Below are positions 1 to 45,212 of a DNA stretch of 46,714 bases, one piece after another (positions within the stretch are counted from its first letter, which is position 1; every line of letters starts with the position of its first letter). Both the position numbers and the translations under genes were made by a program. Source of the DNA: a virus (Duplodnaviria > Heunggongvirae > Uroviricota > Caudoviricetes); the IMG/VR virus record IMGVR_UViG_2671180847_000008; one strand, written 5' to 3'. The notes under the pieces are model-generated. The model was not told the DNA's origin. It worked only from the letters and a program-made list of their open reading frames with translations, and did not search any database.

Positions 1-708
1 ATGTGGGTCAATAAGTATATTGACGATTGCACTGATGAGGATTTAAACGATCGTGACTTTATTGCATCAGTTGTTGACCGGGCTATTTTTCATTTCGCGA
101 TTAATAGTATATGTAATCCTGGGGATAATAAAGATGCAATGCCCATTGAACAATGTACTTTTGATGTAGAAACTAAGAATGACCTTCCCTCCACGGTTCA
201 GCTATTTTATGAGGAATCTAAGGATAATGAACCTTTAGCGAATATACATTTTCAAGCAATAGGTTCTGGTTTTTTAACGTTTGTTAATGCCTGCCAGGAA
301 CATGATGACAACAGCTTAAAATTATTTGCTTCGCTGTTAATTTCACTTTCATATTCTAGTGCCTACGCAGATTTATCAGAAACAGTGTATATTAATGAAA
401 ATAATGAGAGCTACCTGAAAGCTCAGTTTGAAAAATTATCTCAACGTGATATGAAGAAGTACCTGGGAGAGATGAAGCGTCTGGCTGATGGGGGAGAAAT
501 GAATTTTGATGGCTATCTGGATAAGATGTCACATCTGGTGAATGAAGGAACGCTCGATCCTGATATTTTAAGCAAAATGCGAGATGCTGCACCACAATTA
601 ATTAGCTTCGCGAAGTCGTTTGACCCAACCTCAAAGGAAGAGATTAAAATACTTACAGACACTTCTAAATTAATTTATGATTTGTTCGGGGTTAAATCGG
701 AGAAATAA
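1..708 (+). CDS. yjbM: Host hypothetical protein, YjbM-like (235 aa); may be complete, begins at window edge
   Basis: Single long ORF directly upstream of the dusA promoter region, the position yjbM occupies in E. coli K-12; identity recalled from memory, not searched. AT-rich. Confidence 0.5.
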   Translation: MWVNKYIDDCTDEDLNDRDFIASVVDRAIFHFAINSICNPGDNKDAMPIEQCTFDVETKNDLPSTVQLFYEESKDNEPLANIHFQAIGSGFLTFVNACQEHDDNSLKLFASLLISLSYSSAYADLSETVYINENNESYLKAQFEKLSQRDMKKYLGEMKRLADGGEMNFDGYLDKMSHLVNEGTLDPDILSKMRDAAPQLISFAKSFDPTSKEEIKILTDTSKLIYDLFGVKSEK

Positions 709-750
709 TATGTGAAGTTCTTCGATAGTATGGAAGGCATTATATAAAAG

Positions 751-778
751 GACCCAATATTTATTGGGTTCTTTTTTC
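751..778 (+). terminator. Rho-independent terminator after the yjbM-like gene
   Basis: Hairpin GACCCAATA...TATTGGGTTC followed by a run of six T. Confidence 0.6.
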
Positions 779-1070
779 TCTATCAATGCTATTAGCAGGG
801 AGATATATCACCAGAGTTTAATGTGTGATTTTTTATTTATCGTCGAACCTGGATTGTTTATCATTGGCCTTAACAAAGTTAACGGCTAATAAGATTATTT
901 CCATCACTTCGTGAGAGCTTCATGCCTTGAGAGGATCTCAATTTTCTTTTGCAATGAGACAGGCGCTTCCTGTTGTTATGGTATAGTACCCCGCTATTGA
1001 GCCTCCTGAATAGTGATGCTGAATAACATAACCCCATGATATATCGATAAAATAATCTCTACATTTGAAA

Positions 1071-1180
1071 ATGCACGGTAATTCTGAAATGCAAAAAATC
1101 AACCAAACCAGCGCAATGCCTGAAAAAACTGACGTTCACTGGAGTGGTCGGTTTAGCGTTGCACCAATGCTCGATAGGAT
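1071..1180 (+). repeat. attL region: displaced native dusA 5' end (encodes MHGNSEMQKINQTSAMPEKTDVHWSGRFSVAPMLD, then diverges into phage DNA)
   Basis: About 80% identical direct repeat of 45301-45410 (the start of intact dusA); reading frame breaks after the shared ATGCTCGA (1167-1174). Confidence 0.8.
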
Positions 1181-1318
1181 GTACCGTTCTTGAAAAACAA
1201 GTAGTTATACACTTTGTGGGAGCCTATTGGGAACCCGGCGTTTTCATTTCAAGGTGTAATCCATACGCGGCTTAAGAATGAGATATAATGCGACTTTTAG
1301 TGTTCCGCTTGAGAGGCC

Positions 1319-1861
1319 ATGATGCTTACCCTGGACGAGATAGGTCAATCAGTACGTAACAATATCCAGTTGATTATTGATCATGTCGGCTTACCTCTTG
1401 CTGTTGGTCCGCTCAGTGATGATGATTACAAGATTCTGTGTGGTGGCTATGGTGAGCTTGAATGGGACTATGCGTTAAGTACCTATGGCAACTCCAGAGA
1501 AAAGTATGAGTTCTGCATAAAACTTGTTCAGCAAGGTCGGGTTCAGGGAATACCATCAGGAGCAGCAATTTGTGTTTATGGGGTTGAAGAAAACATCTTT
1601 CGTATCCATATGATCGAAAGGTTTTCTAGAGAAGATGAATCTCACCCATTGAAAGGGCGCATGGTTTTACTCACTCTTATGAGTGCTTTTATATTTTGTA
1701 AAGCTGTTGAATGTAAAGTTGTCCACATTGTAGAGCCAGTACCAGAACTGGTGCAGTATTACGAGTCTTTTGGTTTCCGCATGGAACAGTGCGGTTATGT
1801 GATGTCGGCAGTCATTGATGAGCTGCAGGATATCTTTCTTAAATTTGCTCAGAAGGTATAG
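1319..1861 (+). CDS. Prophage cargo protein of unknown function, possibly GNAT-like acetyltransferase fold (start may be the second ATG at 1322)
   Basis: 180-aa ORF; RBS GAGAGG before tandem ATGs; perfect TATAAT at 1284-1289; AT-rich; C-terminal pattern GRMVLL...LVQYYESFGF loosely resembles GNAT motifs A/B. Confidence 0.6.
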   Translation: MMLTLDEIGQSVRNNIQLIIDHVGLPLAVGPLSDDDYKILCGGYGELEWDYALSTYGNSREKYEFCIKLVQQGRVQGIPSGAAICVYGVEENIFRIHMIERFSREDESHPLKGRMVLLTLMSAFIFCKAVECKVVHIVEPVPELVQYYESFGFRMEQCGYVMSAVIDELQDIFLKFAQKV

Positions 1862-1960
1862 ACGAGAAGGGTCTACAAATTGTAGGATACCCGTCCAGAT
1901 TACCTTAAAGGTACATCTATGGCAGTCGTTTTGTGCTTAAACTACTAAGAAACGATGTCA

Positions 1961-1981
1961 CCAATCGACATGATCGATTGG
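1961..1981. promoter_or_regulatory. Palindrome CCAATCGA-N5-TCGATTGG upstream of the 57-aa ORF; candidate operator
   Basis: Perfect 8-bp inverted arms with a 5-bp spacer, about 70 bp upstream of the ATG at 2052. Confidence 0.35.
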
Positions 1982-2051
1982 CATAAGTTAGCGAAACAAG
2001 CTAGCTTTAAAGAAAGGGTTAGAGACGCCTTTACTGTCTCGGGAGTTTTCT

Positions 2052-2225
2052 ATGAAAGATCAAAAAGCAACCAAGCCACAGGTTAAGTTCGACACAATGA
2101 AAGCATTCGCAGGTATGGGTGCTGCTGTTGAAGTTCTGATGAAGGCTGCTCCTAATGCGTTCACTCACGCTACTGTCTCTGGTAAAGAGCAGCAGGGTAA
2201 GCTTCGTCGTCGCAAAGCAGCATGA
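2052..2225 (+). CDS. Small basic protein, 57 aa, unknown function (below the ORF-track length cutoff)
   Basis: ATG with RBS GGGAG 6 nt upstream; ends just before a strong terminator; translation MKDQKATKPQVKFDTMKAFAGMGAAVEVLMKAAPNAFTHATVSGKEQQGKLRRRKAA. Confidence 0.55.
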   Translation: MKDQKATKPQVKFDTMKAFAGMGAAVEVLMKAAPNAFTHATVSGKEQQGKLRRRKAA

Positions 2226-2244
2226 TCATAGCTGGTGCTTTTTG

Positions 2245-2272
2245 AAAACCCGCCTTCAGGCGGGTTTTTTCT
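2245..2272. terminator. Bidirectional rho-independent terminator
   Basis: CCCGCC-TTCA-GGCGGG hairpin flanked by an A-tract on one side and six T on the other; lies between convergent genes. Confidence 0.8.
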
Positions 2273-2554
2273 TTAGTGATGTTCTTTGCCCTTCTGTTTG
2301 ACTGTTCTGACCTGTTCCCACTCGATACGTCCTTCTTCTCGCCTTTTGTCTATGTATTCCGCAAGATCCTGAATATTGATGCAACGTTTTGCTTTTTGTG
2401 ATGTGCCGATGCGATATGTTGGAACGGGCAACTTACAAGCGTTTGCTTTTGCTTCTGCCGTGGCTGGACTCATGCCAAAGTACTTTTGGCTAACTGCTGA
2501 GAGTTCAATGTTTGGGGTATTGAATTCAGCCATCAGTAAAAACAAGGTGTTCAT
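2273..2554 (-). CDS. Excisionase-like DNA-binding protein (PrtN/AlpA-type); start chosen at MNTLFLL
   Basis: ATG at 2554 with RBS GGAG 7 nt upstream; small basic protein; last gene of the leftward operon next to attL. Confidence 0.6.
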   Translation of the reverse strand: MNTLFLLMAEFNTPNIELSAVSQKYFGMSPATAEAKANACKLPVPTYRIGTSQKAKRCINIQDLAEYIDKRREEGRIEWEQVRTVKQKGKEHH

Positions 2555-3163: not shown

Positions 3164-3885
3164 CACTTCACCTCCTGCGGCGGTTCCGGTAGCGGCATCC
3201 AATTGATTACATCGCATTCAGGGATGCTGATATCATCACCAAGCCATCCTTGACCTTCAGACCAGCATTGCACGTAATACCCGTATTCTGTGTTCACTAC
3301 GCACCACTGCCCGTCATCCGGCATTCGCTCACTACAGCTTATCCAACTATCCGGAGTTACCGGAGAGTTGCCATTTACATCGAAGTTTGGCTCTGCGTCC
3401 TGAACCAGGAGGATGTAACCATTCTTGGCAGTATCAAGTTCTAACGCCTCGGTGACGGTGCCGAAATAGCGATTACCTAAATCAGCATCACAAGTGCTTA
3501 CATCAATGGAAACTTCCATGCCTTCGATTAATTCTGGCAAGTTGTAAGTTTGGTTTACAGGTTGGCCTCCCTGAAGCATGGCGGCGCGGTGACACCAGAT
3601 AATCCAGCCAAGCGCCATATCCCATGCCATGTATTCTCTATCACCATTTTTTGCCCTGCGGCGATCTACAGATTCCCCGAAACGCTTCTCCATAAATAAT
3701 TCATAGGCTGCCCGTTCATCCGATACTGCTGCCAGCGATGCCAGTGCAATTTTAAATGCGGTAAGTATGTTGTTAACCACACCTATTTCGAATGCTATTT
3801 CACTACATACAAACGATTTATCGTCTATTATCGACTCAATTCCGGTAATCGTGTTCTGTAACCATTCTTTGGTAAGAGTATTCAT
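3163..3885 (-). CDS. Early-left hypothetical protein with DUF551-like C-terminus
   Basis: 240-aa ORF; RBS AAGGTG; C-terminal W-rich motif DGQWCVV...WMPLPEPP. Confidence 0.7.
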   Translation of the reverse strand: MNTLTKEWLQNTITGIESIIDDKSFVCSEIAFEIGVVNNILTAFKIALASLAAVSDERAAYELFMEKRFGESVDRRRAKNGDREYMAWDMALGWIIWCHRAAMLQGGQPVNQTYNLPELIEGMEVSIDVSTCDADLGNRYFGTVTEALELDTAKNGYILLVQDAEPNFDVNGNSPVTPDSWISCSERMPDDGQWCVVNTEYGYYVQCWSEGQGWLGDDISIPECDVINWMPLPEPPQEVK

Positions 3886-3887
3886 AA

Positions 3888-4079
3888 CTATTTCACCTTA
3901 ATCTCAACATTTCGCAGCTTTAGCTCTACTGGCAGGTCTGACTTTCCGGTTAATGCTAATGCGAGATTTTCTGGAGTAATGAGAGCAGTTATTGTTTTCC
4001 CCCTCGCCAGACGAATAATCATTCGTATTTCGCGATCGTCACATGCTCCTGGTCGAACAATTGATATTTGTCCGTTCAC
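3888..4079 (-). CDS. Small hypothetical protein (63 aa)
   Basis: GTG start with RBS AAGGAG 7 nt upstream; tightly packed in the operon. Confidence 0.5.
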   Translation of the reverse strand: MNGQISIVRPGACDDREIRMIIRLARGKTITALITPENLALALTGKSDLPVELKLRNVEIKVK

Positions 4080-4080
4080 C

Positions 4081-4644
4081 TCACTCTCCTTTGATGCGAA
4101 TGCCAGCGTCAGACATCATATGCAGATACTCAACTGCATCCTGAACCCATTGACCGCCAATCCCGTAATAGCGATGCGTAATGATGTCGATAGTTACTAA
4201 CGGGTCTTGTTCGATTAACTTCCGCAGAAACTCTTCCAGGTCACCAGTGCAGTGCTTGATGACAGGAGTTTTCCCAGGATGGCGAACAACAAGAAACTGA
4301 TTTCCGACTTCACGGACTTCGTTGCTTTCCAGTTCTGCAATGCGCTTCTCTGCGGCTTCCAGCTCAACTCTCAGCTTCCCAACAGTAAGAGCAATATCCT
4401 CGTTCTCCTGATCGCGGCGTTTTATGTATTGCTGGTTTCTTTCCCGTTCATCCAGCAGCGCCAGCACGGTTTCTGGTCCGATCAGAAATTTGAAGGCGTT
4501 GAGCGCATCAATATCCACACCGTAATCTTTAAGTTCCTGTTCACTTAACAAATCATCATCAGCTGGCAACATTAACAGGCGTTCCATTGCTGGAATTGCA
4601 CGTTCCGCCGCCTCACGCAGTGCCTGGTAATTAATTTCGCTCAC
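4081..4644 (-). CDS. Ea22-like early protein (coiled-coil)
   Basis: GTG start with RBS AAGGAGG; N-terminus VSEINYQALREAAERA typical of the ead/Ea22 family; GTGA overlap with the upstream gene. Confidence 0.7.
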   Translation of the reverse strand: MSEINYQALREAAERAIPAMERLLMLPADDDLLSEQELKDYGVDIDALNAFKFLIGPETVLALLDERERNQQYIKRRDQENEDIALTVGKLRVELEAAEKRIAELESNEVREVGNQFLVVRHPGKTPVIKHCTGDLEEFLRKLIEQDPLVTIDIITHRYYGIGGQWVQDAVEYLHMMSDAGIRIKGE

Positions 4645-4880
4645 TGGTTGCCTCCTTTGCGGATCTGCGCTGCGATGCACGAAAAAAAAGACTCTCGCGT
4701 ATGACTGTTAAGAGCTGGCGCGAACGCCGCGCTAAGAACGGCAGCATCACAGCCGTCATCGATATAGAGCGCAATTTTTTTCTCCAGGCGTGCTTTAGCT
4801 TCCTGCAACTGCATACCCCGGCACGCACGCGGGATATACTCAGCAATTTGAGCGATAGATTTTTCGTTCTGTTTAAACAT
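4641..4880 (-). CDS. Small hypothetical early protein (79 aa)
   Basis: ATG with RBS GAGGTG; stop overlaps the Ea22-like start (translational coupling). Confidence 0.55.
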   Translation of the reverse strand: MFKQNEKSIAQIAEYIPRACRGMQLQEAKARLEKKIALYIDDGCDAAVLSAAFAPALNSHTRESFFSCIAAQIRKGGNQ

Positions 4881-5076
4881 GCTTCACCTCGATAGGCTTG
4901 ATGGTATCGATCAGCAGTCGGCGGCGAGTATTTTCTGCAAAGTGGCGGCGTCCGGTTTCTTTGTGGTAAAACTCGTTTTTTCCGACGACCCACATCCGCT
5001 TTGTCTGGTGCAGTTTTTTTACCTGCGGACCGTCTCGGGTGATAACAATTCCTGTATGAGTTTTTATCACGCTCAT
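4873..5076 (-). CDS. Small hypothetical early protein (67 aa)
   Basis: ATG start; ATGA-type overlaps with both neighbours. Confidence 0.5.
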   Translation of the reverse strand: MSVIKTHTGIVITRDGPQVKKLHQTKRMWVVGKNEFYHKETGRRHFAENTRRRLLIDTIKPIEVKHV

Positions 5077-5435
5077 TTCTTATTCTCCGGTGCTTTTGGC
5101 ATTACTGCCCAGTGAGTGATATTGACGTTTTCAAGGTCCCCGACCTGAAATGTCCACTGCCATTCTCCGGTTTCTTTTTGTCCCCAGGTGTACCAGAGAG
5201 AACGCCAGCCAATCAGCCAGCCTTCTCCGTTAGCATCAAATAACAGAACACTTTCATTTGCTGGCGGCAGTTCAGCTGACACTGGCATTATTTTGTTTTC
5301 CAGTGCCGCACATTTAGCTTCAAGCGCATCGAATTTACGTACCAGGTACTCAGCATTTGTTTCATTCACTTTCAGATCTCGCGGTACACATTTCCCGCGA
5401 AGAAACCCTTCCATTTCGAAAACATTCATGCGCAT
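5073..5435 (-). CDS. Small DUF551-like protein
   Basis: 120-aa ORF; C-terminal W-rich motif ITHWAVMPKAPE. Confidence 0.6.
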   Translation of the reverse strand: MRMNVFEMEGFLRGKCVPRDLKVNETNAEYLVRKFDALEAKCAALENKIMPVSAELPPANESVLLFDANGEGWLIGWRSLWYTWGQKETGEWQWTFQVGDLENVNITHWAVMPKAPENKK

Positions 5436-5962
5436 TTGCGTAACTCCGATAACTCGTTAAAACGTTCCATAAACATCCCGTAGGCATGGCCCGGTGCCAG
5501 TGGAACCACGTTGAACATCTCTGTTGCCGGGATGCCTTCCAGTACAGGCCAGAAAGAGCCATCATCAAGCCCGAGATCGCGGCGTTCGGTTGCCAGCATG
5601 ATGAGATCGGCATATTTCACAGGCGTGCTCATAACCGGGGGTAACCCGTATTTCTCACGGATTACGGCATCTATTTTTTCTTCCATCCGTTTATAGTCAG
5701 GAAGAAGGCGTTTCAGTGGAGCGGGGATGTCCTGGCAATATGCTTCTGTTGCATCATGCATTAACGCTTCAAAAGCAAATTCCTGCGGTACCAGCTGGCT
5801 GCAAAGCACCGCATGCTGGGCGACGCTGTAGAAGTGTGAAAGATGTCCTGCAAAGCGACAGATATTTGAAAGGGAAACTGCGATATCGTTAATCACGATG
5901 TCGTCTTTATTTATCTTGTCATAATAAAAATGCTTCCCGGAAAAAGTTTTAATAAATGACAT
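5426..5962 (-). CDS. HD-domain phosphohydrolase (YfdR-like 5'-deoxynucleotidase family)
   Basis: Start MSFIKTF with RBS GGAG; H...HD metal-binding motifs (AQHAVLCS, ALMHDATE). Confidence 0.75.
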   Translation of the reverse strand: MSFIKTFSGKHFYYDKINKDDIVINDIAVSLSNICRFAGHLSHFYSVAQHAVLCSQLVPQEFAFEALMHDATEAYCQDIPAPLKRLLPDYKRMEEKIDAVIREKYGLPPVMSTPVKYADLIMLATERRDLGLDDGSFWPVLEGIPATEMFNVVPLAPGHAYGMFMERFNELSELRKCA

Positions 5963-6090
5963 TTCGTTCTCCACTTTATATGCGCTGCACAGCGCTGAAT
6001 TCTGCTAAAAGGAAGCTCTCACCATCCGGTGATTATTGAGTTAATTACGTTTCCATAAATGCCCCCGCAGGGGCATTTGCAGTAATGAAA

Positions 6091-6915
6091 TCAGGCGGTG
6101 AAAGTACCAATAAAGGTTTCTACTTTGCTGTCTTTGAATTTCTCAACAAGCAGATCACGAAATTCGTTAGCCATTTCTTCCTGCATCGCTTCCAGCTGAA
6201 TAATGCGCAGAACCAGTACAGGACGATCGCCAGTGATAATGCTGAGGCGTAATTTAAACGGACGTTCTTTCAGACCTTCAAACGGAACGCATTTAAATTC
6301 AAATGCCACTGGCATAATGTCTTTGGTCTTCGCTTCGACAGACTCCATCAGGGAGCGTTTGCCGCTGAAGTCATTATCTTCAAAATCAGCGGTCTGGTTT
6401 GCTTCAATCGTGATTTTACGGACTGCCGCAGCCGCTTTTGTTGCCTGAATAGCGTCACCATTGGCATCAAAGCCCACAAGGTAGTCGGCCCAGTCTTCAA
6501 TCCATTCTGCCAGTGACTTCTGGGAGTTACGCTCGCCGTTAACAGACAACAGGGCAGAGAACGGTGCTGTCTTTTTCAGTTTGAGAGTGGCGGTGTTATC
6601 TGCGTGACCTGGTTCATCAATAGTACCCAGGTTAAGCACACTGACGGCTCGCATATTATCGGCATCGATAAAGCAGCGGGTGCCTTCATCTGCAAGATCT
6701 TTAGAATAACGGGTAAAGTCATCGATGCTGGCAGTGGAAAGCGCACCACGGAAACGGAAGCGATTTAAATTAAATTTTTCCAGATCATGAATGCGGAAAT
6801 TCTCAGGCAATGCCACAGCATCGGCACCAATATTACTGATAATTTCATTAACACCCTGAGCAGAAATAAGGGCATGGATTTGATTAATTGCGGTTGCGTC
6901 TAAGTTCTGAGACAT
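6091..6915 (-). CDS. YfdQ-like protein (DUF2303)
   Basis: 274-aa ORF; ATG with RBS GAGGA; family recalled from the CPS-53 prophage early region. Confidence 0.7.
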
Positions 6916-8045: not shown

Positions 8046-8738
8046 TTAATTGTGTCGCTTAAGGGTTTGTGACTGACTGATTAAGACCTTTCCAAAGACC
8101 ATAAACCGGTGTTCGTTTTCGCTGGTAATTCCCCATTCGCGGTAAATCTGATTATCAGAAATTACCAGCAGTTTATCAGGTATCATTTGCAGTCGTTTGA
8201 CGTAAATTTTATCATCAAAACCAAATACATATATACCATCCCCATCAAACTGATTGATACTGATATCAACGAAGATGAGATCTCCTGGCTCAATGGTTGG
8301 ACACATACTGTCCCCACGAACGTTGATAACTTTAATGTGATTTGCTGGTCGTCCACCAAACATCGATACAGCATTATCAGTTCTGTATTCAATGGCATGA
8401 ATCACATCAATGACATCACCGCCCTGGATAAGGCCATTTCCCGCACTGGCACTGACATCCAGCATTTCAATACGGAATACATCCTTCACCTGCGCAACAT
8501 CCTCACTAATACTGTTTTTACATACAGTATTACTTTTGAAGTCTGAGGTAAAGAGATCAGCAATATCAACACCTAAGCTCCTGGCAATATTACTCAGGGC
8601 TTGTTCAGTGAATTGTTTCTGCTTACCTGTTTCCAGGCGTGAGATATTCGCCGCATCCACTCCTATTGCTTCAGCGAGATCGGCGATTTTCATGTTCTTC
8701 GCCTGGCGAAGTTGTCTGACTCGATTTCCTATGTTCAT
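8046..8738 (-). CDS. cI: CI-like prophage repressor (HTH plus S24/LexA-like peptidase domain)
   Basis: N-terminal HTH (KIADLAEAIGVDAANISRLETG); C-terminal GDSM Ser and VKRL Lys autocleavage motifs; ATG with almost no leader, as for lambda cI. Confidence 0.9.
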   Translation of the reverse strand: MNIGNRVRQLRQAKNMKIADLAEAIGVDAANISRLETGKQKQFTEQALSNIARSLGVDIADLFTSDFKSNTVCKNSISEDVAQVKDVFRIEMLDVSASAGNGLIQGGDVIDVIHAIEYRTDNAVSMFGGRPANHIKVINVRGDSMCPTIEPGDLIFVDISINQFDGDGIYVFGFDDKIYVKRLQMIPDKLLVISDNQIYREWGITSENEHRFMVFGKVLISQSQTLKRHN

Positions 8739-8744
8739 GCGTTT

Positions 8745-8821
8745 ATTACATTTCTTTATTGCGCGTTAAGCAAATCAACTTGCGCAAAATATTTGCGTGA
8801 AATAATATGCTCATCACGCAA
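8745..8821. promoter_or_regulatory. Divergent immunity promoters with operator-like repeats (candidate pRM/pR/OR)
   Basis: Rightward TTGCGC-N17-TAATAT (8780-8808) ahead of cro; leftward TTGCTT-N17-TGTAAT (8773-8745) ahead of cI; TTGCGCGTTAAGCAA (8759-8773) plus inverted TTGCGTGA...TCACGCAA (8793-8821). Confidence 0.55.
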
Positions 8822-8835
8822 TATGTGGAGGTCAT

Positions 8836-9096
8836 ATGCAATCACCATTACGGAATGTGCGTAAGGCGCACGGATTTACTTTGCAGCATGTTGCTGCGGG
8901 CGTTCAGGTCAATCCAGCGACGCTGAGTCGTATTGAAAGACTGGAACAAATTCCATCTATCGATCTTGCAGAACGTCTGGCCAATTTTTTTAAGGGTGAA
9001 ATCAGCGAAATGCAGATTCTTTATCCGGCACGTTTTCAATCTAGCCAAAACCAGAATGGGTTTAAACCACAGGAACAGGAGGTAAGCCGTGGGTAA
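8836..9096 (+). CDS. cro: Cro-like HTH repressor
   Basis: ATG with RBS GGAGG; HTH FTLQHVAAGVQVNPATLSRIE; divergent from cI. Confidence 0.85.
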   Translation: MQSPLRNVRKAHGFTLQHVAAGVQVNPATLSRIERLEQIPSIDLAERLANFFKGEISEMQILYPARFQSSQNQNGFKPQEQEVSRG

Positions 9097-9640
9097 GCAT
9101 CACTGGAAAGTGGAAAAACAGCCTGAGTGGTACGTGAAAGCTGTCAGAAAAACTATCGCGGCGTTGCCGGGGGGTTACGCTGAAGCTGCTGACTGGCTGG
9201 ATGTAACAGAGAACGCTTTATTCAACCGCCTTCGTGCAGATGGCGATCAGATTTTCCCGCTGGGATGGGCAATGGTTTTACAGCGCGCGGCTGGCACTCA
9301 CTACATTGCGGATGCTGTCGCACAGTCTGCTGGTGGGGTGTTCGTATCGCTTCCTGAAATTGAGGAAGTAGAGAACGCCGATATAAACCAGCGCCTGCTG
9401 GAAGTCATCGAACAGATCGGGAATTACTCAAAGCAGATTCGTTCGGCAATCGAAGATGGGGTCGTGGAGCCACACGAGCAGACAGCAATTAATGATGAGT
9501 TGTATCTGTCAATTTCGAAGCTCCAGGAACATGCAGCACTGGTCTACAAAATCTTCTGCGCTCCAGAAAAGAGTGACGCCCGCGAGTGTGCAGCTCCGGG
9601 CGTCGTGGCGTTTTGTGTCTGTGGAGAAACTAACGCATGA
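9089..9640 (+). CDS. Early regulatory protein of uncertain function, in the position of cII
   Basis: GTG start with RBS AGGAGG 8 nt upstream; 183 aa; immediately downstream of cro. Confidence 0.6.
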   Translation: MGKHHWKVEKQPEWYVKAVRKTIAALPGGYAEAADWLDVTENALFNRLRADGDQIFPLGWAMVLQRAAGTHYIADAVAQSAGGVFVSLPEIEEVENADINQRLLEVIEQIGNYSKQIRSAIEDGVVEPHEQTAINDELYLSISKLQEHAALVYKIFCAPEKSDARECAAPGVVAFCVCGETNA

Positions 9641-9785
9641 ACAGTTTAACGGCAAATAACCGTTTGTCGCAACAGCTGGTGGTCAGTGTCGCTGAACACC
9701 TGTTGTTACGGCATGAATGCAGATTACCAAATCACCTGGCTGTAAGTAACCACAGAGAACTTTACCTGACTGTGGGGGGCGAGTT

Positions 9786-9965
9786 GTGCAGGAACTTAAC
9801 CGCTGGTTTCGTGACGGAAGAGGGCTTTATGTCCATGTTATTCGTTGGGAACCAGAAACACAGCGCGTTATCTATCTTCGCAAAGACTACCCGCATGAGT
9901 GCTTTAGTCCTTTGTGGAAATTCAGGCGTGATTTTGTTGAGTGTGAAGGACCACCAGCACATTGA
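9786..9965 (+). CDS. Candidate small ORF (59 aa) in a different frame from the 383-aa track ORF
   Basis: GTG start preceded by a G-rich RBS; protein-like translation (NRWFRDGRGLYVHVIRWEPETQRVIYLRKDYPHECFSPLWKFRRDFVECEGPPAH); followed by a terminator. Confidence 0.3.
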   Translation: MQELNRWFRDGRGLYVHVIRWEPETQRVIYLRKDYPHECFSPLWKFRRDFVECEGPPAH

Positions 9966-10050
9966 TTCTGCCATTCCGGGACGTTACACTGTTCAGGCAC
10001 CTTATAAAACGGGTGCCGGGCGTGGAAACCCGGAATTCACCAAAGCGCAC

Positions 10051-10074
10051 AACCGCGCTCTTGCGGTTTTTTTG
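10051..10074 (+). terminator. Rho-independent terminator inside the early-right operon (tR1-like)
   Basis: AACCGC-GCTCTT-GCGGTT hairpin followed by TTTTTTT. Confidence 0.65.
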
Positions 10075-10242
10075 TGTCATGAGCAGCATTACGCCCAAAT
10101 TATGGTGGGGCGTGCAGGGCCAACTTCGGTTGGGCCGGGTTCTTTGGTGACCGGTATTTCCACCCCTGTACGTCTCACCACCAATAAGGTCGTGGAAAGC
10201 CTTGGTGGTGAGTTATTAAAAATCACCAAAGAGGCTGCCATC

Positions 10243-11826: not shown

Positions 11827-12315
11827 ATGAGTCTTTTGAATGAAGTTCAGAAATTCATTGAAGCCCATCCGGGGTGTACTTCCGGAGACATTGCGGATGC
11901 TTTTGCAGGTTACTCACGGCAGCGCGTTCTGCAGTCAGCAAGCAAGTTACGTCAGAGTGGGCGTGTGGCTCACCGTTGTGAAGGAGATACACGCAGACAT
12001 TTCCCACGCCTGACTGAGAGAGCGCAGGAGCCGGAACCACAACCAGTTCGTGAAACCAGACCTGTGCGCAATTTCTATGTCGGCACTAACGACCCGCGGG
12101 TGATTTTGTGCCTGACCCGCCAGGCGGAAGAACTGGAGTCCAGGGGCTTATACCGTCGTGCTGCAACGGTGTGGATGGCGGCATTCCGTGAAAGCCACTC
12201 CCAGCCAGAACGAAACAATTTTCTGGCGCGTCGTGAGCAGTGTTTACGGAAAAGCAGCAAGCGCGCTGCATCGGGTGAAGAGTGGTATCTGTCAGGGAAT
12301 TACGTGGGGGCTTAA
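11827..12315 (+). CDS. PerC-like transcriptional activator family protein
   Basis: C-terminal GLYRRAATVWMAAFRE resembles the PerC motif; RBS AGGGGG; start at the second Met. Confidence 0.5.
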   Translation: MSLLNEVQKFIEAHPGCTSGDIADAFAGYSRQRVLQSASKLRQSGRVAHRCEGDTRRHFPRLTERAQEPEPQPVRETRPVRNFYVGTNDPRVILCLTRQAEELESRGLYRRAATVWMAAFRESHSQPERNNFLARREQCLRKSSKRAASGEEWYLSGNYVGA

Positions 12316-12968
12316 TGAGTAATAAATATTGCCAGGCGCTGGTGGAACTGCGGAATAAACCAGCCCATGAACTGAAGGAAGTGGGCGATCAGTGGCGCAC
12401 GCCGGATAACATTTTCTGGGGAATTAACACCCTGTTTGGTCCGTTTGTTCTGGATCTGTTCACTGACGGTGATAACGCCAAATGTGCCGCGTATTACACG
12501 GCGGAAGACAACGCGCTGGCGCATGACTGGTCAGAACGTCTTGCGGAGCTTAAAGGTGCTGCCTTTGGTAATCCCCCATACAGCCGCGCCAGTCAGCATG
12601 AGGGGCAATACATCACCGGCATGCGTTACATCATGAAGCATGCCAGTGCCATGCGTGATAAAGGCGGGCGCTATGTTTTCCTGATCAAAGCTGCCACCAG
12701 CGAAGTGTGGTGGCCGGAAGATGCAGATCATATTGCTTTTATTCGCGGGCGTATTGGTTTTGAACTGCCTGCCTGGTTTATCCCGAAGGATGAGAAGCAG
12801 GTGCCGACAGGTGCGTTCTTCGCTGGTGCTATTGCTGTTTTCGACAAGACCTGGAAGGGACCGGCAATCAGCTACATCGGGCGCGATGAACTTGAGGCAT
12901 GTGGTGAGGCCTTTCTGGCGCAGGTTCGCCAGCAGGCAGAAAAACTGGTCAGGGAGATGGCGGCATGA
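12315..12968 (+). CDS. Phage Dam-like N6-adenine DNA methyltransferase
   Basis: NPPY catalytic motif (GNPPYS); TAATG overlap with the upstream gene. Confidence 0.8.
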   Translation: MSNKYCQALVELRNKPAHELKEVGDQWRTPDNIFWGINTLFGPFVLDLFTDGDNAKCAAYYTAEDNALAHDWSERLAELKGAAFGNPPYSRASQHEGQYITGMRYIMKHASAMRDKGGRYVFLIKAATSEVWWPEDADHIAFIRGRIGFELPAWFIPKDEKQVPTGAFFAGAIAVFDKTWKGPAISYIGRDELEACGEAFLAQVRQQAEKLVREMAA

Positions 12969-13291
12969 CGACGTTAACTCAATGCCAGCAGCAGGTGCTG
13001 GATATGCTGATTTCTTATCAGAAAGAACGTGGCTTCCCGCCAACCAATCAGGAGGTGGCAACCATGCTGGGATACCGTTCAGTGAATGCAGCGGTGGAGC
13101 ATCTTCGCGCACTGGAGAAAAAAGGCGTCATCACGATAAAGCGTGGCGTGGCCCGGGGGATAACGCTTCATACCGCGGTGAAGGACGACGACAGCGAGGC
13201 GGTCGGGATTATCCGCGCACTGCTTGCCGGTGAGGAAAACGCAAGGCTGCGTGCAACCCACTGGTTACATGAGAGGGACCTGAAAGTATGA
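12965..13291 (+). CDS. LexA N-terminal DNA-binding-domain homologue lacking the peptidase domain
   Basis: Aligns with E. coli LexA residues 1-70 (MKALTARQQEVFDLI...[34 protein letters not shown]); only 108 aa, no S24 domain. Confidence 0.75.
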   Translation: MTTLTQCQQQVLDMLISYQKERGFPPTNQEVATMLGYRSVNAAVEHLRALEKKGVITIKRGVARGITLHTAVKDDDSEAVGIIRALLAGEENARLRATHWLHERDLKV

Positions 13292-13677
13292 AGCTGATCC
13301 TGCCTTTTCCGCCCAGCGTGAACACGTATTGGCGACACCCCAACAAAGGGGCGTTTGCTGGTAAGAGCCTGATAAGCTCGGCGGGGCGAAAATTCCAGAG
13401 CGCGGCGTGCGCAGCAATAGTTGAGCAGTTACGTCGTCTGCCGAAACCAACGTCGGCACCTGCTTCAGTGGAGATCGTGTTGTTTCCTCCGGATAACCGG
13501 ATCCGCGATCTGGACAACTATAACAAGGCGCTGTTTGACGCCCTGACCCATGCGGGTGTGTGGGAAGACGACAGTCAGGTGAAAAGAATGCTGGTGGAGT
13601 GGGGACCGGTTATCCCGAAAGGGAAGGTCGAGATCACTATCAGTAAGTACGAGAAAACGGCGGGTGCAGCCGCCTGA
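13288..13677 (+). CDS. rusA: RusA Holliday-junction resolvase
   Basis: MKLILPFPPSVNTYWR N-terminus and DLDNYNKALFDALTHAGVWEDD catalytic region; ATGA overlap. Confidence 0.9.
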   Translation: MKLILPFPPSVNTYWRHPNKGAFAGKSLISSAGRKFQSAACAAIVEQLRRLPKPTSAPASVEIVLFPPDNRIRDLDNYNKALFDALTHAGVWEDDSQVKRMLVEWGPVIPKGKVEITISKYEKTAGAAA

Positions 13678-15503: not shown

Positions 15504-15520
15504 TTTTGTGGAGAAAGTTG

Positions 15521-15886
15521 ATGCGTGATATTCAAATGGTTCTTGAACGTTGGGGGGCATGGGTGGCAAATAATCACGAGGATGTCACTTGGTCGTCTAT
15601 TGCTGCAGGATTTAAAGGACTAATCCCTTCAAAAGTAAAATCCCGCCCGCAATGTTGTGACGATGACGCGATGATCATTTGTGGATGCATGGCTCGCCTG
15701 AAAAAGAACAACAGCGATTTGCACGATTTATTAGTGGATTATTATGTAGGTGGTATGACGTTTATGGCGCTTGCCCGTAAACATGGGCGTTCTGATTGCT
15801 GGGTTGGGCGTTTATTGCAAAAGGCTGAAGGTGTAGTTGATGGCATGTTAATGATGTTAGAAATTGAGCTAGAGATGGATCGTTAG
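15521..15886 (+). CDS. quuD: Late-gene antiterminator Q (QuuD-like)
   Basis: [22 protein letters not shown]...[16 protein letters not shown] recalled as the DLP12 QuuD family; RBS GGAG. Confidence 0.8.
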
Positions 15887-15970: not shown

Positions 15971-16417
15971 TTAAGGTTTTAATTCATCAAGACGTTGTTG
16001 GATAGTGTTTTTGCTTGCGTTGTCTGTTATAGCCATTTGTTGTACTTGCCCCATTGCCATTTGAGTTTCCATCCACATATCGGCCCACACTTTTGTATCG
16101 TTATTAACTTGAGCGATAGTAAATCTGACTTTTGATACCGGGGTTGTTGAATAGGCATTGCCGATTAACATTTGTCCAAAAACAGCAGACCCGCCTTCCA
16201 GTTCTTTACCACATATAACACTGCTGTTATCCGCGTTGTAAATTATCAACCCTCTACTATTGCAGTAATTCACAAGGGCATCTTTGACTTTATCTTTTGT
16301 CGTATTTTGATAAACCCCCTCAGGTTTTCCTGATTGAGTTTTCTTTATCAATGGTACGGAAGAAGTACAACCTGAAATGATAGTTGCGCTAAGTAATAGT
16401 ACAGTCATTTTATTCAT
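15971..16417 (-). CDS. Lipoprotein of unknown function (moron), antisense to the late operon
   Basis: Signal peptide with lipobox LLSATIISGC; AT-rich; candidate promoter TTGATT-N17-ATAATT on the minus strand (16479-16451). Confidence 0.7.
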   Translation of the reverse strand: MNKMTVLLLSATIISGCTSSVPLIKKTQSGKPEGVYQNTTKDKVKDALVNYCNSRGLIIYNADNSSVICGKELEGGSAVFGQMLIGNAYSTTPVSKVRFTIAQVNNDTKVWADMWMETQMAMGQVQQMAITDNASKNTIQQRLDELKP

Positions 16418-17041: not shown

Positions 17042-18094
17042 ATGAAAAATACTGTAAAAATAAACAGTGTTGATTTAATCAACGCTGATTGCCTGCATTT
17101 TATTCAGTCCCTGCCTGATGATTCCATTGACCTGATTGTTACCGATCCGCCGTACTTCAAGGTGAAACCCAACGGCTGGGACAATCAGTGGAAAGGGGAC
17201 GAAGATTACCTTAAGTGGCTGGACCACTGTCTGGCCCAGTTCTGGCGGGTGTTAAAACCTGCCGGAAGCCTTTACCTGTTCTGTGGGCATCGCCTGGCAT
17301 CTGATATTGAGATCATGATGCGCGAACGTTTCAACGTGCTTAACCATATCATCTGGGCGAAGCCGTCCGGACGTTGGAATGGGTGTAATAAAGAAAGTCT
17401 GCGCGCATATTTTCCTGCCACAGAGCGCGTTCTGTTTGCTGAACATTACCAGGGGCCATATCGCGGCAAAAGTGACGGCTATGCGGCAAAAGAAAGGGAA
17501 CTCAAACAGCACATAATGGCACCGCTGATATCGTATTTCAGGGATGCTCGTGCCGCACTGGGTATAACGGCAAAACAAATTGCCGAAGCCACAGGTAAGA
17601 AAAATATGGTTTCCCACTGGTTTGGTGCCAGTCAGTGGCAGTTGCCGAATGAGGCTGACTATCGGAAGTTACAGGCACTGTTTTCCCGTATAGCGGCAGA
17701 GAAGTTTCAGGAACAACAACTGGAACAACCACACCACCAGCTGGTGGCATCTTATGATTCACTGAATCGTAAATATTCTGAATTGCTGGATGAGTTTAAA
17801 TCTCTCCGGCGTTATTTCTCCGTATCAGTCTCCGTGCCTTATACCGATGTCTGGATGCATAAACCCGTTCAGTTCTACCCGGGTAAACATCCGTGTGAGA
17901 AACCGGCGGATATGCTCAGGCAAATAATCAATGCCAGTAGTCGACCTGGTGATCTGGTTGCTGATTTTTTTATGGGATCCGGTTCCACAATAAAAGCAGC
18001 AATGGCGCTGGGGCGTCGGGCCTTAGGTGTTGAGCTTGAGTCAGAGCGGTTTAACCAGACAGTGAAAGAGATAAACGAGCTGGTGGGGAAATAA
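17042..18094 (+). CDS. Orphan DNA methyltransferase (N6-adenine or N4-cytosine class)
   Basis: DPPY motif (VTDPPYF) and AdoMet-binding FxGxG (FFMGSGST); no adjacent endonuclease gene. Confidence 0.85.
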
Positions 18095-39716: not shown

Positions 39717-39726
39717 TGGGGTGAAT

Positions 39727-42700
39727 ATGGCAGTAAAGATTTCAGGTGTACTGAAAGACGGCGCAGGTAAACCGGTACAGAACTGCACAATCCAGCTGAA
39801 AGCAAAACGTAACAGCACCACGGTGGTGGCGAACACGGTGGCCTCAGAAAATCCGGATGAAGCCGGGCGTTACAGCATGGACGTTGAGTACGGTCAGTAC
39901 AGCGTTATTCTGTTGGTGGAAGGCTTCCCGCCATCGCATGCCGGGACCATCACCGTGTATGAAGACTCACAACCGGGTACGCTGAATGATTTTCTCGGTG
40001 CCATGACGGAGGATGATGTCCGTCCGGAGGCACTGCGCCGCTTTGAACTGATGGTGGAAGAGGTGGCGCGTAACGCGTCCGCAGTGGCGCAGAACACAGC
40101 AGCCGCGAAGAAGTCAGCCAGCGATGCCAGCACATCAGCCCGTGAGGCGGCAACCCATGCGACTGATGCTGCAGGCTCAGCACGTGCAGCCAGCACGTCA
40201 GCCGGACAGGCCGCTTCGTCGGCTCAGTCAGCGTCTTCCAGCGCAGGAACGGCATCAACAAAGGCTACTGAAGCATCAAAAAGTGCTGCCGCTGCAGAGT
40301 CTTCAAAAAGCGCGGCAGCCACCAGTGCCGGTGCAGCGAAAACGTCAGAAACGAATGCCGCAGCATCACAAAAATCTGCGGCCACTTCTGCATCCACCGC
40401 GACCACGAAAGCGTCAGAAGCTGCCACCTCAGCCCGGGATGCGTCGGCTTCAAAAGTGGCGGCAAAATCATCAGAAACGAGCGCAGCCTCGAGCGCCGGC
40501 AGTGCAGCTTCCTCGGCAACGGCGGCAGGAAATTCCGCGAAGGCCGCAAAAACGTCTGAGACGAATGCGGATAACAGCGCACAGGCGGCAGCAGACTCAC
40601 AAACTGCATCGGCAAACTCCGCGACAGCAGCCAAAAAATCAGAAACCAACGCGAAAAATAGTGAGGCAGCAGCAAAGGTCAGCGAAACCAACGCTAAAGC
40701 GTCAGAGAACAAGGCGAAAGAATATCTCGACAAGGTCGGGGGACTCGTCAGCCCGATGACGCAATACGATTGGCCTGTTGTTACTGCTAGTGAGTCTCTT
40801 TACATCAAGATCGCGAAACTTTCCGATCCTGGAGCCAGCAGAAGTCATGTAACGCTAATGGTTACTAACGCTGGTAACTACGGCTCCCCTTACGGAAACA
40901 TTGACTTTATCGAGATCTCGGCGCGCGGTCTGCCTTCTTTGCTTAGTGCGGATAATGTTTCTCGTCATCTGAGTATACGCCGCTTAGGGTCAACCGGGCT
41001 GACCGATAACAACCAGATGCGTTACGGCCTGGTTAAAGGTGACGGCTTTATTGAGGTTTGGGCATTCCAGGGTGCGTTTATTAACGACGCAAAGGTTGCG
41101 GTGCTGGCGCAGACAACACTAAACACAGAATTATACATTCCAGACGGATTTGTTAAGCAAACCGCCGCGCCTTCTGGATATATTGAAGGCAACGTTGTAA
41201 GGATTTACGACCAGGTAAACAAGCCGACTAAAGCAGATTTGGGTCTTTCTAATGCTATGCTTACAGGCGCTTTCGGTCTTGGCGGTAGCGGGATATCAAC
41301 AAACGGCAAGATGAGCGATGTAGAGATCTTAAAAGCTCTGCGTGACAAAGGTGGTCATTTCTGGCGCGGTGATAAGCCGACCGGAAGCACGGCGACCATT
41401 TATAGCCACGGTTCTGGTATATTCTCGCGGTGCGGCGATACGTGGTCAGCGATCAATATCGACTACTCAACCGCGAAGATTAAGATCTATGCCGGCAACG
41501 ATGCCCGGCTTAACAACGGGACTTTTAGCGTCAATGAGCTATACGGCTCGGCAAACAAGCCGTCGAAATCGGATGTTGGACTTGGCAACGTAACGAACGA
41601 TGCGCAGGTAAAAAAAACCGGTGATACAATGACCGGTGACTTGACAATCAAAAAAGGTACACCGTCAGTCTTCCTGCGGGCAGACAGTGGAGTCACCGCT
41701 TTGCGGTTTTATACTGGCGATAACACAGAGCGCGGCATAATCTATGCTGGTCCTAACACTGATTCGCTTGGCGAAGTTCGCATCAGGGCAAAGACAGCAG
41801 GGGGGACATCAGGAGGGGATCTTGTTGTTCGTCACGACGGGAGGGTTGAAGTCCGTGATCTCACAGTAGCGTATAAAATTAAAAGCAGAACGATTGAGAT
41901 TGCAAATACCGACACTGACTCATCGGCAACTACGCTAAGCATCTATGGAGTACAGCACACGCCGTTGGTTTTAACGCGTTCTGGTTCTTCTGAAAATGTG
42001 TCCATTGGGTTTAAGTTAGACAACGTGAACCCAAAGTATCTTGGAATTGATACTAATGGGGATCTGGCTTTTGGTGAGAGTCCTGATCAGAAACAAAACA
42101 GCAAATTGATCACGCAAGCGAAACTCGACAAGGGATTAACGATTGGTGGTCAACTGGCTTTCAAAGGTACGACAGCGTTTTCAGCCGTTGCTACGTTCAG
42201 TGCCGGGATAGCAGGAGCCATCGAGCCGGAAAACATTGACGGCCAGACGGTTAATCTTAACAACCTGACCATCATCAAGTCAGATGCCGGGGCAGTTAAA
42301 TACTATATTTGTCCATCCTCTGCAGGTGGTGCAAATATCACCAACAAGCCTGACGGCGTAACAGGTAACTTTTTGCTCCGTGTTGAATCGACTCGTAAGG
42401 TTAGGGATTCAGATTATGCGAACATACAAACGCTGATTAACAGCGACACAAAACGTATATACGTTCGCTTTGTTGTTAATGGAAACTGGACAGCGTGGAG
42501 TCAGGTTGTTGTTTCCGGATGGAATCAGGATGTAACCGTCAGGTCGTTAACCTCGACGACTCCATCAAAATTAGGTGGCGGGCGGATTGATGTGCTTGGA
42601 AGTACGTCAGATTATGGCAGCATGAATTGTACCGTTCGTGGTGTTGATAGCACTGGAACCAATTCGGCGTGGTCGGTAGGCACATCAGAAAGCACAGGCA

Positions 42701-43804: not shown

Positions 43805-44053
43805 TTAGTGAACAAACCACTCGTCAGCAGACTCCCAGGTATCTTTCAGAGTCTCCTGAACAAATGTTTTTGCAGAATCTTTATCTGCGGTGCGTGTAAC
43901 AGAAAGCCCATCGTTGCTGGTGGCTTTTACGATCACCTCTACATCGTCATAACGTTTACTGATGCGTCGGGTTAATTCTTCCTTTAACGCATCCACAGCA
44001 CCGTTTGGCATTTTAGTTATTTTTTCTTTGGCTATGCAGATCTCAATACGCAT
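43805..44053 (-). CDS. dinI: DinI-like DNA-damage-inducible protein
   Basis: 82 aa; [11 protein letters not shown]...[16 protein letters not shown] resembles the DinI family; LexA boxes in its promoter. Confidence 0.85.
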
Positions 44054-44066: not shown

Positions 44067-44114
44067 TACTGTGTTTGTATACAGTATTATTTTTAACTGT
44101 ATGGATAAACAGTG
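44067..44114. promoter_or_regulatory. Two tandem LexA (SOS) boxes in the dinI-like promoter
   Basis: taCTGTgtttgtatACAGta (44067-44086) and aaCTGTatggataaACAGtg (44095-44114); both fit CTGT-N8-ACAG exactly. Confidence 0.85.
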
Positions 44115-45212
44115 TCAAGAGGTCTTATTTCTGCTCCTTTGGAGCTCTTCAAAACGATTATGTAAAGATTTCGGATACAGTTCGGTATATACCTGCCATA
44201 GCACGTTTAATGAACGATGCCCTGTAACCTGAGCGACTTCCTCAATACTAAAACCAGCCTCAAATAAGCGACTTGCCCCTTCTCTACGCAAATCATGGTA
44301 TCGCAGATCTTTAATACCTAATTTGCTTCTTACCCTCTGAAATCCTGCAGTAACAGAAGTGCTGTTATATGGAAAAATGAATTCCGATTTTTTGGGCTGT
44401 CGTTGGACGATATCCCAGGCTTCCCCAAGCAAGGCTACTTTCATGTGGTTGCCTTCCTTTTTGCGTGGATCTTTCCTGTCTCTTACGAGTATAGATTTTT
44501 GTTCCTGGTCGAGATCTTCCCATCGTAACCGGCATACTTCTCCGATCCGCATACAGGACCACACAGAAAATTTGAGGATATCAACGAACGGAATTTTTGA
44601 GCATTTATGAGTAGATCGTTGTTGAAGGCCTTCAATGAGCATGTCCAGTTCATCAGATGCTGGTCTACGATTACGACGGTTTGATTTACCAATCAAACCA
44701 AGTTTAAGTAGATATGGGCGAGCGCTTTTCGCCGGGTTTGATGTGTAATTAATTCCGTATACAGGTTTGGCCGCATCCAGAACACTGCCAAGATAACTAA
44801 CATCGTGGCTGACTGTTGCTGGACCTGCACCAGCGTTGTTTCTTAGCCTGCAATGTTCAATTACGTCATTTTCTGTCAGTTCAGATAGTTTGATCGCGGA
44901 GATGTCACTATCCATAAGCAGTTCCAGCACATATCTTTTAGTACGGCCTGCTTTACCTCCGGCATTTGGGTCATTTAAATATTTGTGTAGTAAGTCACGG
45001 ACTGTAAGTCCGTCAACTGCATTTGATGATGGAATGCCATATAGATCTAATTCCATCACTTTCTGTGTTCCCCATGTTTTGGCATGAGCATGTTTAGGGA
45101 ATGTTTTGCTTTCCCTGTAAGTGATAACACCTTTTTCTTTGATAATCACATTACAGCGATAGCGTGGTGTGCCATCGGATTTTAGTCGTTTCTCTATGTT
45201 ATAGTACGCCAT
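44115..45212 (-). CDS. int: Tyrosine integrase (dusA-targeting type)
   Basis: C-terminal catalytic region with HDLRREGASRLFEAG and VTGHRSLNVLWQVYTELY (His-x-x-Arg, Tyr nucleophile); adjacent to the attachment site in dusA. Confidence 0.9.
   Translation of the reverse strand: MAYYNIEKRLKSDGTPRYRCNVIIKEKGVITYRESKTFPKHAHAKTWGTQKVMELDLYGIPSSNAVDGLTVRDLLHKYLNDPNAGGKAGRTKRYVLELLMDSDISAIKLSELTENDVIEHCRLRNNAGAGPATVSHDVSYLGSVLDAAKPVYGINYTSNPAKSARPYLLKLGLIGKSNRRNRRPASDELDMLIEGLQQRSTHKCSKIPFVDILKFSVWSCMRIGEVCRLRWEDLDQEQKSILVRDRKDPRKKEGNHMKVALLGEAWDIVQRQPKKSEFIFPYNSTSVTAGFQRVRSKLGIKDLRYHDLRREGASRLFEAGFSIEEVAQVTGHRSLNVLWQVYTELYPKSLHNRFEELQRSRNKTS

Follow-up and report, generated by a model that had tools for sequence, protein, structure and literature searches.

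The SOS response, once induced, leads to prophage induction, the release of Shiga toxin, mutagenesis, and tolerance to antibiotics. Mobile elements are known to damp this response through DinI and PsiB, two proteins that bind to RecA filaments, and through gp7 of phage GIL01, which binds LexA. In other phage switches, such as those of 186 (Tum), N15 (AntC), the Gifsy antirepressors, and CTXphi, genes are placed behind SOS boxes and host LexA is borrowed. The sole characterized phage-encoded truncated LexA homologue is gp6 of GIL01, a tectivirus of Bacillus thuringiensis (Fornelos et al. 2018, PMC6182141). This protein is a bare domain of 66 amino acids (aa), whose recognition helix is SHKTAHRY with an essential K38; it binds the non-LexA palindrome GaCACAnnTGTGaC and activates the late promoter P3. 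Here, we analyzed a window of 46,714 nucleotides, which is the whole IMG/VR record IMGVR_UViG_2671180847_000008. The window holds a ~44 kb lambdoid prophage integrated in the 5′ end of dusA, and one of its genes encodes a 108-aa protein with a LexA DNA-binding domain (DBD) and no peptidase domain, hereafter the LexA-DBD gene. Phage genes behind SOS boxes are also suggested by four strong boxes in this window, whereas the prophage, unlike the switches above, encodes a LexA-like DNA-binding protein of its own. The sequence-only reading of this DNA had recognized no described system of this form; GIL01 gp6 contradicts that statement, and annotations of SfV, mEp460, and Shiga toxin (Stx) phages routinely list the gene product as a regulator of the LexA family. 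Like gp6, the 108-aa protein is a phage-encoded LexA winged helix without a Peptidase_S24 (S24) domain, and it belongs to the early operon of an SOS-tied phage. In contrast to gp6, it appears to be of gammaproteobacterial LexA origin, with LexA-type contacts and a conserved hairpin, in a cI-controlled lambdoid phage.

The explanation that we favor, with a probability of roughly 0.45, is that the protein would be a RecA-proof LexA surrogate: a hairpin-mediated dimer on SOS boxes that would re-repress SOS-box promoters once host LexA is gone. It draws on the observed domain content and truncation of the protein, the purifying selection on the gene, its operon position, and the association of the family with SOS boxes, dinI, and recA.

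The open reading frame was found exactly as claimed before, and its product is identical to WP_000210155.1, which is labeled 'LexA family transcriptional regulator'. Residues 1-65 matched the full length (1-65 of 65) of the Pfam profile PF01726 (LexA_DNA_bind) with an E-value of 2.9e-19 and 69 bits, well over the gathering cut-off of 23.7 bits, and the same Pfam search gave no Peptidase_S24 match, so that both the DNA-binding domain and the domain boundary of the earlier reading stood. Against the NCBIfam lexA equivalog TIGR00498, the protein covered only profile positions 1-91 of 203 and scored 70.6 bits, which is under the cut-off of 110.95 bits. When E. coli LexA was compared with the window by tblastn, only LexA residues 1-86 aligned at this locus (12965-13234), no remnant of the LexA C-terminal part was found near the gene in any frame, and the sole S24-like signal was the separate cI gene. 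The catalytic Ser/Lys dyad, which is Ser119/Lys156 in LexA, is absent as well. Judged by these profiles, the 108-aa protein is not LexA proper, because it has neither the S24 domain nor the family score. Since the S24 domain and the dyad are both missing, RecA-stimulated self-cleavage is predicted to be impossible, in agreement with the earlier claim. In its predicted working, the protein most resembles a natural LexA(Ind−) allele, considering that LexA(Ind−) mutants such as lexA3 are likewise beyond inactivation by activated RecA (RecA*).

Searches against PHROG assigned the whole protein to PHROG 362, 'transcriptional repressor' (residues 1-108 versus profile 1-106 of 106, E 3.8e-59), and only its domain portion to PHROG 3502 (E 4.3e-15). 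Membership in the gp6 family was therefore rejected: gp6 belongs to PHROG 3502 (E 1.8e-21), matches PHROG 362 with only E 2.8e-5, and gave no BLASTP alignment to the 108-aa protein. Two other assignments were also discarded. Similarity to replication initiators of the O/DnaD type was weak (phrog_678, E 0.0087; DnaD_N, E 0.16) and was taken as generic winged-helix similarity, and for known anti-phage defense systems PADLOC returned nothing beyond a weak, generic match to winged helices (E 3.6e-4).

Next, the structure was modeled with AlphaFold2 from a 30-sequence family alignment, resulting in a mean predicted local distance difference test score of 82. The model gave a LexA-type winged helix, composed of helices 6-22, 28-35, and 40-52 and strands 56-58 and 66-68. 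The top Foldseek match was the LexA-DNA complex 3jso, with a root-mean-square deviation of 1.0 Å over 68 columns at 50% identity. In the direct alignment, 35 of residues 1-70 are identical to E. coli LexA without gaps, and key contact residues are shared. The helix 3 contacts of LexA with DNA have been reported as S39, N41, A42, E44, and E45 (PMC3091678), and R52 and K53 are important for binding (PMC4807011, citing Zhang et al. 2010). The recognition helix of the 108-aa protein agrees with that of E. coli LexA at 9 of 14 positions, including four of the five reported contact residues. Identical residues are S39, N41, A42, E45, H46, L47, K53, R64, G65, and I66, so the R64-G65-I66 wing is retained; E44 is replaced by V and R52 by K. 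S39 and N41 are invariant in the family alignment.

The sequence-only reading held that the protein stops where the peptidase and dimerization domain would begin. No such domain follows, but the protein does not simply stop: a conserved helical hairpin of ~35 aa is added. In the model, a lower-confidence linker separates the winged helix from helices 75-88 and 93-103. The tail has conserved hydrophobic positions throughout the family, with the consensus EAVxLLRALLxGExxARERAIxxLxxRG; A97 and L101 do not vary in either of the two family alignments, and L86/L87 are found only in close relatives. A88-G89-E90 aligns with LexA A84-G85-E86, the Ala-Gly cleavage site; it lies inside a predicted helix, and distant family members do not keep it. 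No structural match to the hairpin was found in PDB or BFVD. From the model, this amphipathic hairpin could be a dimerization element, a candidate replacement for the dimer contact of the peptidase domain. Compared with host LexA, the protein thus has the same fold and, instead of the S24 domain with its dyad, a novel hairpin, and it is prophage-encoded. It shares with the LexA 1-84 fragment the lack of a dimerization domain. That fragment reportedly ends in a ClpXP degradation signal, unlike the 108-aa protein, which ends in ...ERDLKV.

The gene is intact. Its ATG shares an ATGA with the stop codon of the preceding Dam gene, and its TGA shares another ATGA with the rusA ATG, with a GGGAG Shine-Dalgarno sequence ahead. 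This arrangement indicates a separate cistron, translationally coupled to its neighbors, rather than a full-length repressor broken by a frameshift. Among 83 loci, 43 nucleotide alleles and 14 protein alleles were found, none with an internal stop. Over the 43 alleles, the ratio of nonsynonymous to synonymous polymorphism (pN/pS) was 0.073 for the whole gene, 0.011 for the DNA-binding domain, and 0.19 for the tail. The short length and the C-terminal tail are retained in homologues down to 40% identity across Enterobacterales. A frameshifted full-length LexA or cI was ruled out by the start and stop overlaps, the missing S24 remnant, and the conserved family length. Consequently, the sequencing or frameshift artefact that the earlier reading had named as its possible undoing is not borne out.

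As the IMG/VR scan gave near-identical E. coli loci only, family diversity was taken from protein searches. The 327-bp gene is present at an identity of at least 95% in 2233 of 5426 complete E. coli genomes (41%). It also occurs in 50 phage records, including SfV, SfII, SfIV, mEp460, cdtI, Ayreon, and many Stx2a and Stx2c phages; the SfV copy is orf42, annotated as 'unknown'. Profile searches placed the family in E. coli, Shigella, Salmonella, Citrobacter, Cronobacter, Atlantibacter, Kosakonia, Hafnia, Klebsiella, and Enterobacter. Complete members are ~104-135 aa long, and nearly all matches listed have PF01726; the longer matches listed have additional Pfam domains and seem to be fusions or fragments arising from gene calling. 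Being well annotated and very common, the gene is no discovery as a sequence. In the Eru Stx-phage papers, 'LexA family' denotes cI-type repressors and not the LexA-DBD gene. A large search over 1.8 billion proteins returned 4611 relatives, including tandem two-domain forms, and many more short phage proteins labeled 'LexA DNA-binding domain' are present in BFVD; therefore, short LexA-DBD proteins are a common and essentially unstudied general kind. The many tandem LexA-DBD proteins of the representative library (140-350 aa; P0130, P0131, P0148, P0150, P0153, P0155, P0156, P0159, and others) could be single-chain pseudo-dimers, likewise without a peptidase domain.

Two branches of the family differ in setting. 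The branch of 106-111 aa, to which the window belongs, is always in a cI-controlled rightward operon with the order methyltransferase or PerC, LexA-DBD, RusA ... DUF968, Q, where the methyltransferase is Dam (PF05869), D12 (PF02086), or C5 (PF00145). The branch of 130-135 aa from Klebsiella, Enterobacter, and relatives has a ~25-aa low-complexity N-terminal extension and forms a cassette, orfA - LexA-DBD - orfC, with orfA of ~80 aa (phrog_1813) and orfC of 67 aa (phrog_1212), neither of which had a Pfam match. The Klebsiella 130-aa homologue matches PHROG 362 (E 4.3e-41). A high-scoring SOS box precedes the cassette in all four independent contexts sampled (Table 1), and in Klebsiella prophages dinI is found immediately upstream. 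In L014 and L010, the box comes after an intrinsic terminator and overlaps a sigma-70-like promoter, and in L003 the overlap is with the −10 region that precedes dinI. From the SOS box and the dinI or recA context, the gene of this branch looks SOS-inducible and physically linked to SOS players. This linkage in Klebsiella and Enterobacter is the strongest computational evidence for an SOS role of the family, and it unexpectedly lends weight to the general idea of the sequence-only reading.

In the window, the LexA-DBD gene lies 4.2 kb downstream of cI, in the nin region. The rightward operon reads YmfL/CP76, Rha, HTH replication protein, PerC (YfdN), Dam, LexA-DBD, RusA, KilA-N, DUF968, and Q, and the late genes are under the Q antiterminator. 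Of the 80 IMG/VR loci examined, 78 have RusA at +323, counted from the start of the LexA-DBD gene. A promoter scan showed no promoter-like site near the gene. By its nin-region position it is a delayed-early gene, and as it has neither a promoter-like site nor an SOS box of its own, it is probably made in lytic growth and not in the quiescent lysogen. A role as the immunity repressor was ruled out by the prophage's own complete cI/cro pair (8046-9096), the second member of which is cro-like. Phage ST64B has the same PerC-Dam-RusA-KilA-N synteny without the LexA-DBD gene, such that Dam is directly followed by RusA. The gene is therefore accessory and dispensable for the phage core program, which is more in keeping with an accessory role directed at the host than with an essential activator of late genes.

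The surrogate mechanism would then run as follows. Residues 1-70 would recognize the enterobacterial SOS box CTGT-N8-ACAG, and the C-terminal hairpin would provide the dimer contact otherwise given by the LexA peptidase domain. Without an S24 domain, the protein would escape removal by RecA*-stimulated self-cleavage. Translated from the early-right (nin) operon and coupled to Dam and RusA, it would appear in lytic growth after induction, when host LexA would already be cleaved. It would re-occupy SOS boxes of the host SOS regulon and of the phage, that is, those at dinI, within cI, and at the late methyltransferase. In the Klebsiella and Enterobacter branch, the protein made from its own SOS-box promoter would be a damage-induced feedback brake on SOS. 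Possible benefits would be host energy spared from SOS toxins, fewer mutagenic polymerases, silenced LexA-controlled rival prophages, and lower RecA. In this scheme, we infer the DNA specificity, the dimerization, the repression, and the biological pay-off.

Several points weigh against the surrogate mechanism. The isolated LexA N-terminal domain binds operators only weakly, and the hairpin as a dimer interface is a conjecture. Position 44, which is Glu in LexA, is never Glu in the family. E45 gives way to D, L, or T in Cronobacter, K. pneumoniae, and further branches; part of the family may therefore have drifted in specificity. In the window, no position-specific scoring matrix (PSSM) score of at least 10 was found between the box at 8510-8529 and that at 17050, so the gene has no SOS box of its own; the matrix was built from ~21 E. 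coli sites, and its scores are approximate. Roughly half of the 80 close E. coli loci lack any SOS box within 6 kb. A literature search for functional work on the enterobacterial family returned annotations only. Finally, gp6, as the only characterized protein of its type, binds a non-LexA palindrome and activates (PMC6182141).

This precedent leads to the alternative that the 108-aa protein is a phage-specific factor whose specificity has diverged from that of LexA, binding a non-SOS phage operator and activating or repressing phage genes, for example in timing the transition from delayed-early to late transcription. We consider this unlikely. It would agree with the binding and P3 activation by gp6, with the replacements at positions 44 and 45 described above, and with the location of the gene, which is always in a regulatory or nin region upstream of Q. 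However, the recognition helix keeps the LexA residues at most positions, whereas gp6 has an altered helix with its critical K38, and gp6 falls into another PHROG. The syntenic ST64B without the gene argues against an essential phage regulator, and the SOS box, dinI, and recA that adjoin the gene in relatives point to SOS. A gp6-like palindrome overlapping the −35 region at the late promoter was not identified, although no systematic search for conserved non-SOS palindromes was made. If the protein were such a regulator, the mechanism would extend from tectiviruses to lambdoid phages.

The pattern CTGT-N8-ACAG occurs five times in the window versus 0.62 expected. The PSSM supported four strong boxes, two at dinI, one in cI, and one at the methyltransferase; the fifth pattern match, at 9740-9755 inside the Rha gene, scored under 10 and is probably a chance occurrence. 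The dinI-like gene (82 aa, PHROG 189) indeed sits behind two LexA boxes, as stated earlier, and is, from its sequence context, a LexA-controlled moron; dinI morons are common. The further statement that dinI and the LexA-DBD gene make up an SOS-tuning module is unjustified in the window, because dinI is 30 kb away, on the opposite strand, and in its own LexA-controlled unit. An SOS-directed role as such stays plausible, given the contact residues that are kept and the SOS-box, dinI, and recA context in the Klebsiella and Enterobacter relatives.

The box in cI is near-consensus and lies in the linker codons between the helix-turn-helix (HTH) and S24 domains. Its arms, TACTGTA...AACAGT, are invariant in five cI lineages (two from E. 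coli, and one each from Cronobacter, Salmonella ST64B, and Klebsiella), whose cI genes share 69-100% nucleotide identity. The spacer is variable, although always AT-rich, and the linker codons on either side diverge: 15 of the 20 box columns do not vary, compared with 8 of 36 just downstream. Other copies of the box are at 16444-16463 in L001, 2190-2209 in L006, 7468-7487 in L012, and 7461-7480 in L013. No description of this box was found; it may be a roadblock or an internal promoter, sense or antisense. ST64B and Klebsiella phage 1 LV-2017 retain the box and have no LexA-DBD gene, which rules it out as a dedicated target of the LexA-DBD protein. Therefore, the box is a trait of that cI family and is presumably read by host LexA. 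The box in the late methyltransferase gene is found again, together with this gene, in over 20 related IMG/VR loci, and coding constraint may contribute to this. In ten relatives (L042, L054, L062, L071, L076, L083, L085, L090, L093, and L096), a box TACTGTATTTATGAACAGTG/A occupies the short gap between rusA and a variant KilA-N gene, at +764 from the LexA-DBD start; it suggests a LexA-controlled KilA-N (antirepressor-like?) gene adjoining the LexA-DBD gene.

The protein may instead be an SOS-box binder that acts only on the phage's own boxes, with a phage-made copy taking over from host LexA; it would turn off dinI and KilA-N or antirepressor-like genes, or block cI transcription at the cI box, and would not meaningfully affect the host regulon. 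We regard this as quite unlikely, even though the boxes in cI, at the methyltransferase start, before dinI, and, in some relatives, ahead of the variant KilA-N gene would serve it, and all ten distinct sequenced phages with the cI type of the window have the LexA-DBD gene. The cI box is kept in two phages without the gene, many carriers have a different type of cI and lack a box within 6 kb, and an SOS-box binder would not tell phage boxes from host boxes. Very improbable is that the protein is no transcription factor, being either a decaying host LexA fragment, as the alignment of residues 81-90 (GIIRALLAGE) with the LexA hinge and cleavage segment LVGRVAAGE might hint, or a DNA-targeting or partner subunit of RusA or Dam, as the tight translational coupling and the RusA gene next to it in nearly every E. 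coli locus might suggest, since the gene is under strong purifying selection with no disrupted alleles, its length and tail are conserved to 40% identity, many loci lack Dam and the Klebsiella cassettes lack RusA, and the Ala-Gly motif is lost in distant members.

Returning to the LexA surrogate, DinI, PsiB, and gp7 act on RecA or LexA protein, whereas the 108-aa protein would act on operators as a substitute repressor. The outcome, SOS damped or reshaped by a mobile element, would be the same if our favored explanation is right, and an uncleavable phage repressor on LexA operators would be a different control point. The gene is carried by highly prevalent prophages of E. coli, Shigella, Salmonella, Klebsiella, Cronobacter, and Enterobacter, Stx2-converting phages among them. 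The broader proposal is rather doubtful: that a widespread RecA-proof LexA substitute rewrites SOS dynamics, with SOS shut-down from the lytic operon after the onset of the prophage's own induction, silencing of rivals (antirepressors of other prophages, colicins, and SOS toxins), and a feedback brake with dinI or phage recA in Klebsiella and Enterobacter. Such a protein would be the first operator-level SOS inhibitor on a mobile element, with consequences for mutagenesis, persistence, Shiga-toxin output, and prophage competition.

The features are collected in Table 1. The integrase adjoins intact dusA at the right end, and is therefore beside the tail-fiber and dinI end and not beside the early-left genes. 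According to the annotation of a 99% identical genome, a 5′ remnant of dusA is at the left end, at ~1071-1175.

Table 1. Positions of the features in the window and of the SOS-box cassettes in related loci
Locus	Feature	Position	Strand	Basis or remark
Window	LexA-DBD-only gene, 108 aa, PHROG 362	12965..13291	+	ATG start
Window	LexA-type winged helix-turn-helix, residues 1-70	12965..13174	+	Pfam, AlphaFold2, Foldseek
Window	Recognition helix, residues 39-52, SVNAAVEHLRALEK	13079..13120	+	Alignment to E. coli LexA
Window	C-terminal helical hairpin, residues 75-103	13187..13273	+	AlphaFold2
Window	Phage Dam-type N6-adenine methyltransferase	12315..12968	+	Pfam Dam E 9.7e-46; annotation
Window	RusA Holliday-junction resolvase	13288..13677	+	Pfam RusA
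Window	Complete cI-type repressor (HTH_3 + Peptidase_S24)	8046..8738	-	Pfam
Window	SOS box TACTGTTTTTACATACAGTA in cI linker codons, candidate target	8510..8529		PSSM 25.8
Window	Antiterminator Q, end of early-right (nin) operon	15506..15886	+	Phage_antitermQ E 1.8e-51
Window	Late-region N6/N4 DNA methyltransferase gene, downstream of Q	17042..18094		Pfam N6_N4_Mtase
Window	SOS box TACTGTAAAAATAAACAGTG in codons 3-9 of late methyltransferase, candidate target	17050..17069		PSSM 22.3
Window	dinI-like gene, between tail-fiber genes and integrase	43805..44053	-	Pfam DinI E 1.2e-19
Window	Two SOS boxes upstream of dinI-like gene, candidate targets	44067-44086, 44095-44114		Pattern, PSSM
Window	Tyrosine integrase	44115-45212	-	Right end
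Window	Intact dusA	45301-46338	+	Right end, beside integrase
L003-L005	Cassette: box TACTGTTTATTTATACAGTA (L003 5385-5404), then dinI	5385-6593		
L014-L015	Cassette: box TACTGTTTATTTGTACAGTA (L014 4536-4555), then recA homologue	4536-6593		
L016	Cassette: box TACTGTTTTTATATCCAGTA (340-359), then recA homologue	340-2428		
L010-L011	Cassette: box ACCTGTACATTCATACAGTA (L010 5560-5579), cassette directly after	5560-6608		

Further observations concern genes outside the operon. In the window, a putative lipoprotein gene of 148 aa (signal peptide ...ISGC) at 15971-16417 on the minus strand separates Q from the late genes; with promoter-like sites at 16436-16407, it resembles a moron. The tail-fiber protein (39721-43506, plus strand, 1261 aa) contains Ala/Ser/Thr/Lys-rich repeats of the type AAxxSAxxAxxSAxAA at residues ~115-330. 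In the Enterobacter prophage L010, an RNAse_A_bac/CdiI_2-like toxin-immunity pair at 3863-5232 on the minus strand is just upstream of the SOS-box cassette, and a second strong SOS box at 10164-10183 lies between a lysozyme gene and a reverse-oriented open reading frame of 202 aa. The Salmonella prophage L009, whose LexA-DBD gene is 54% identical, encodes a Pertussis_S1-like ADP-ribosyltransferase subunit at 9373-10098, directly downstream of Q.

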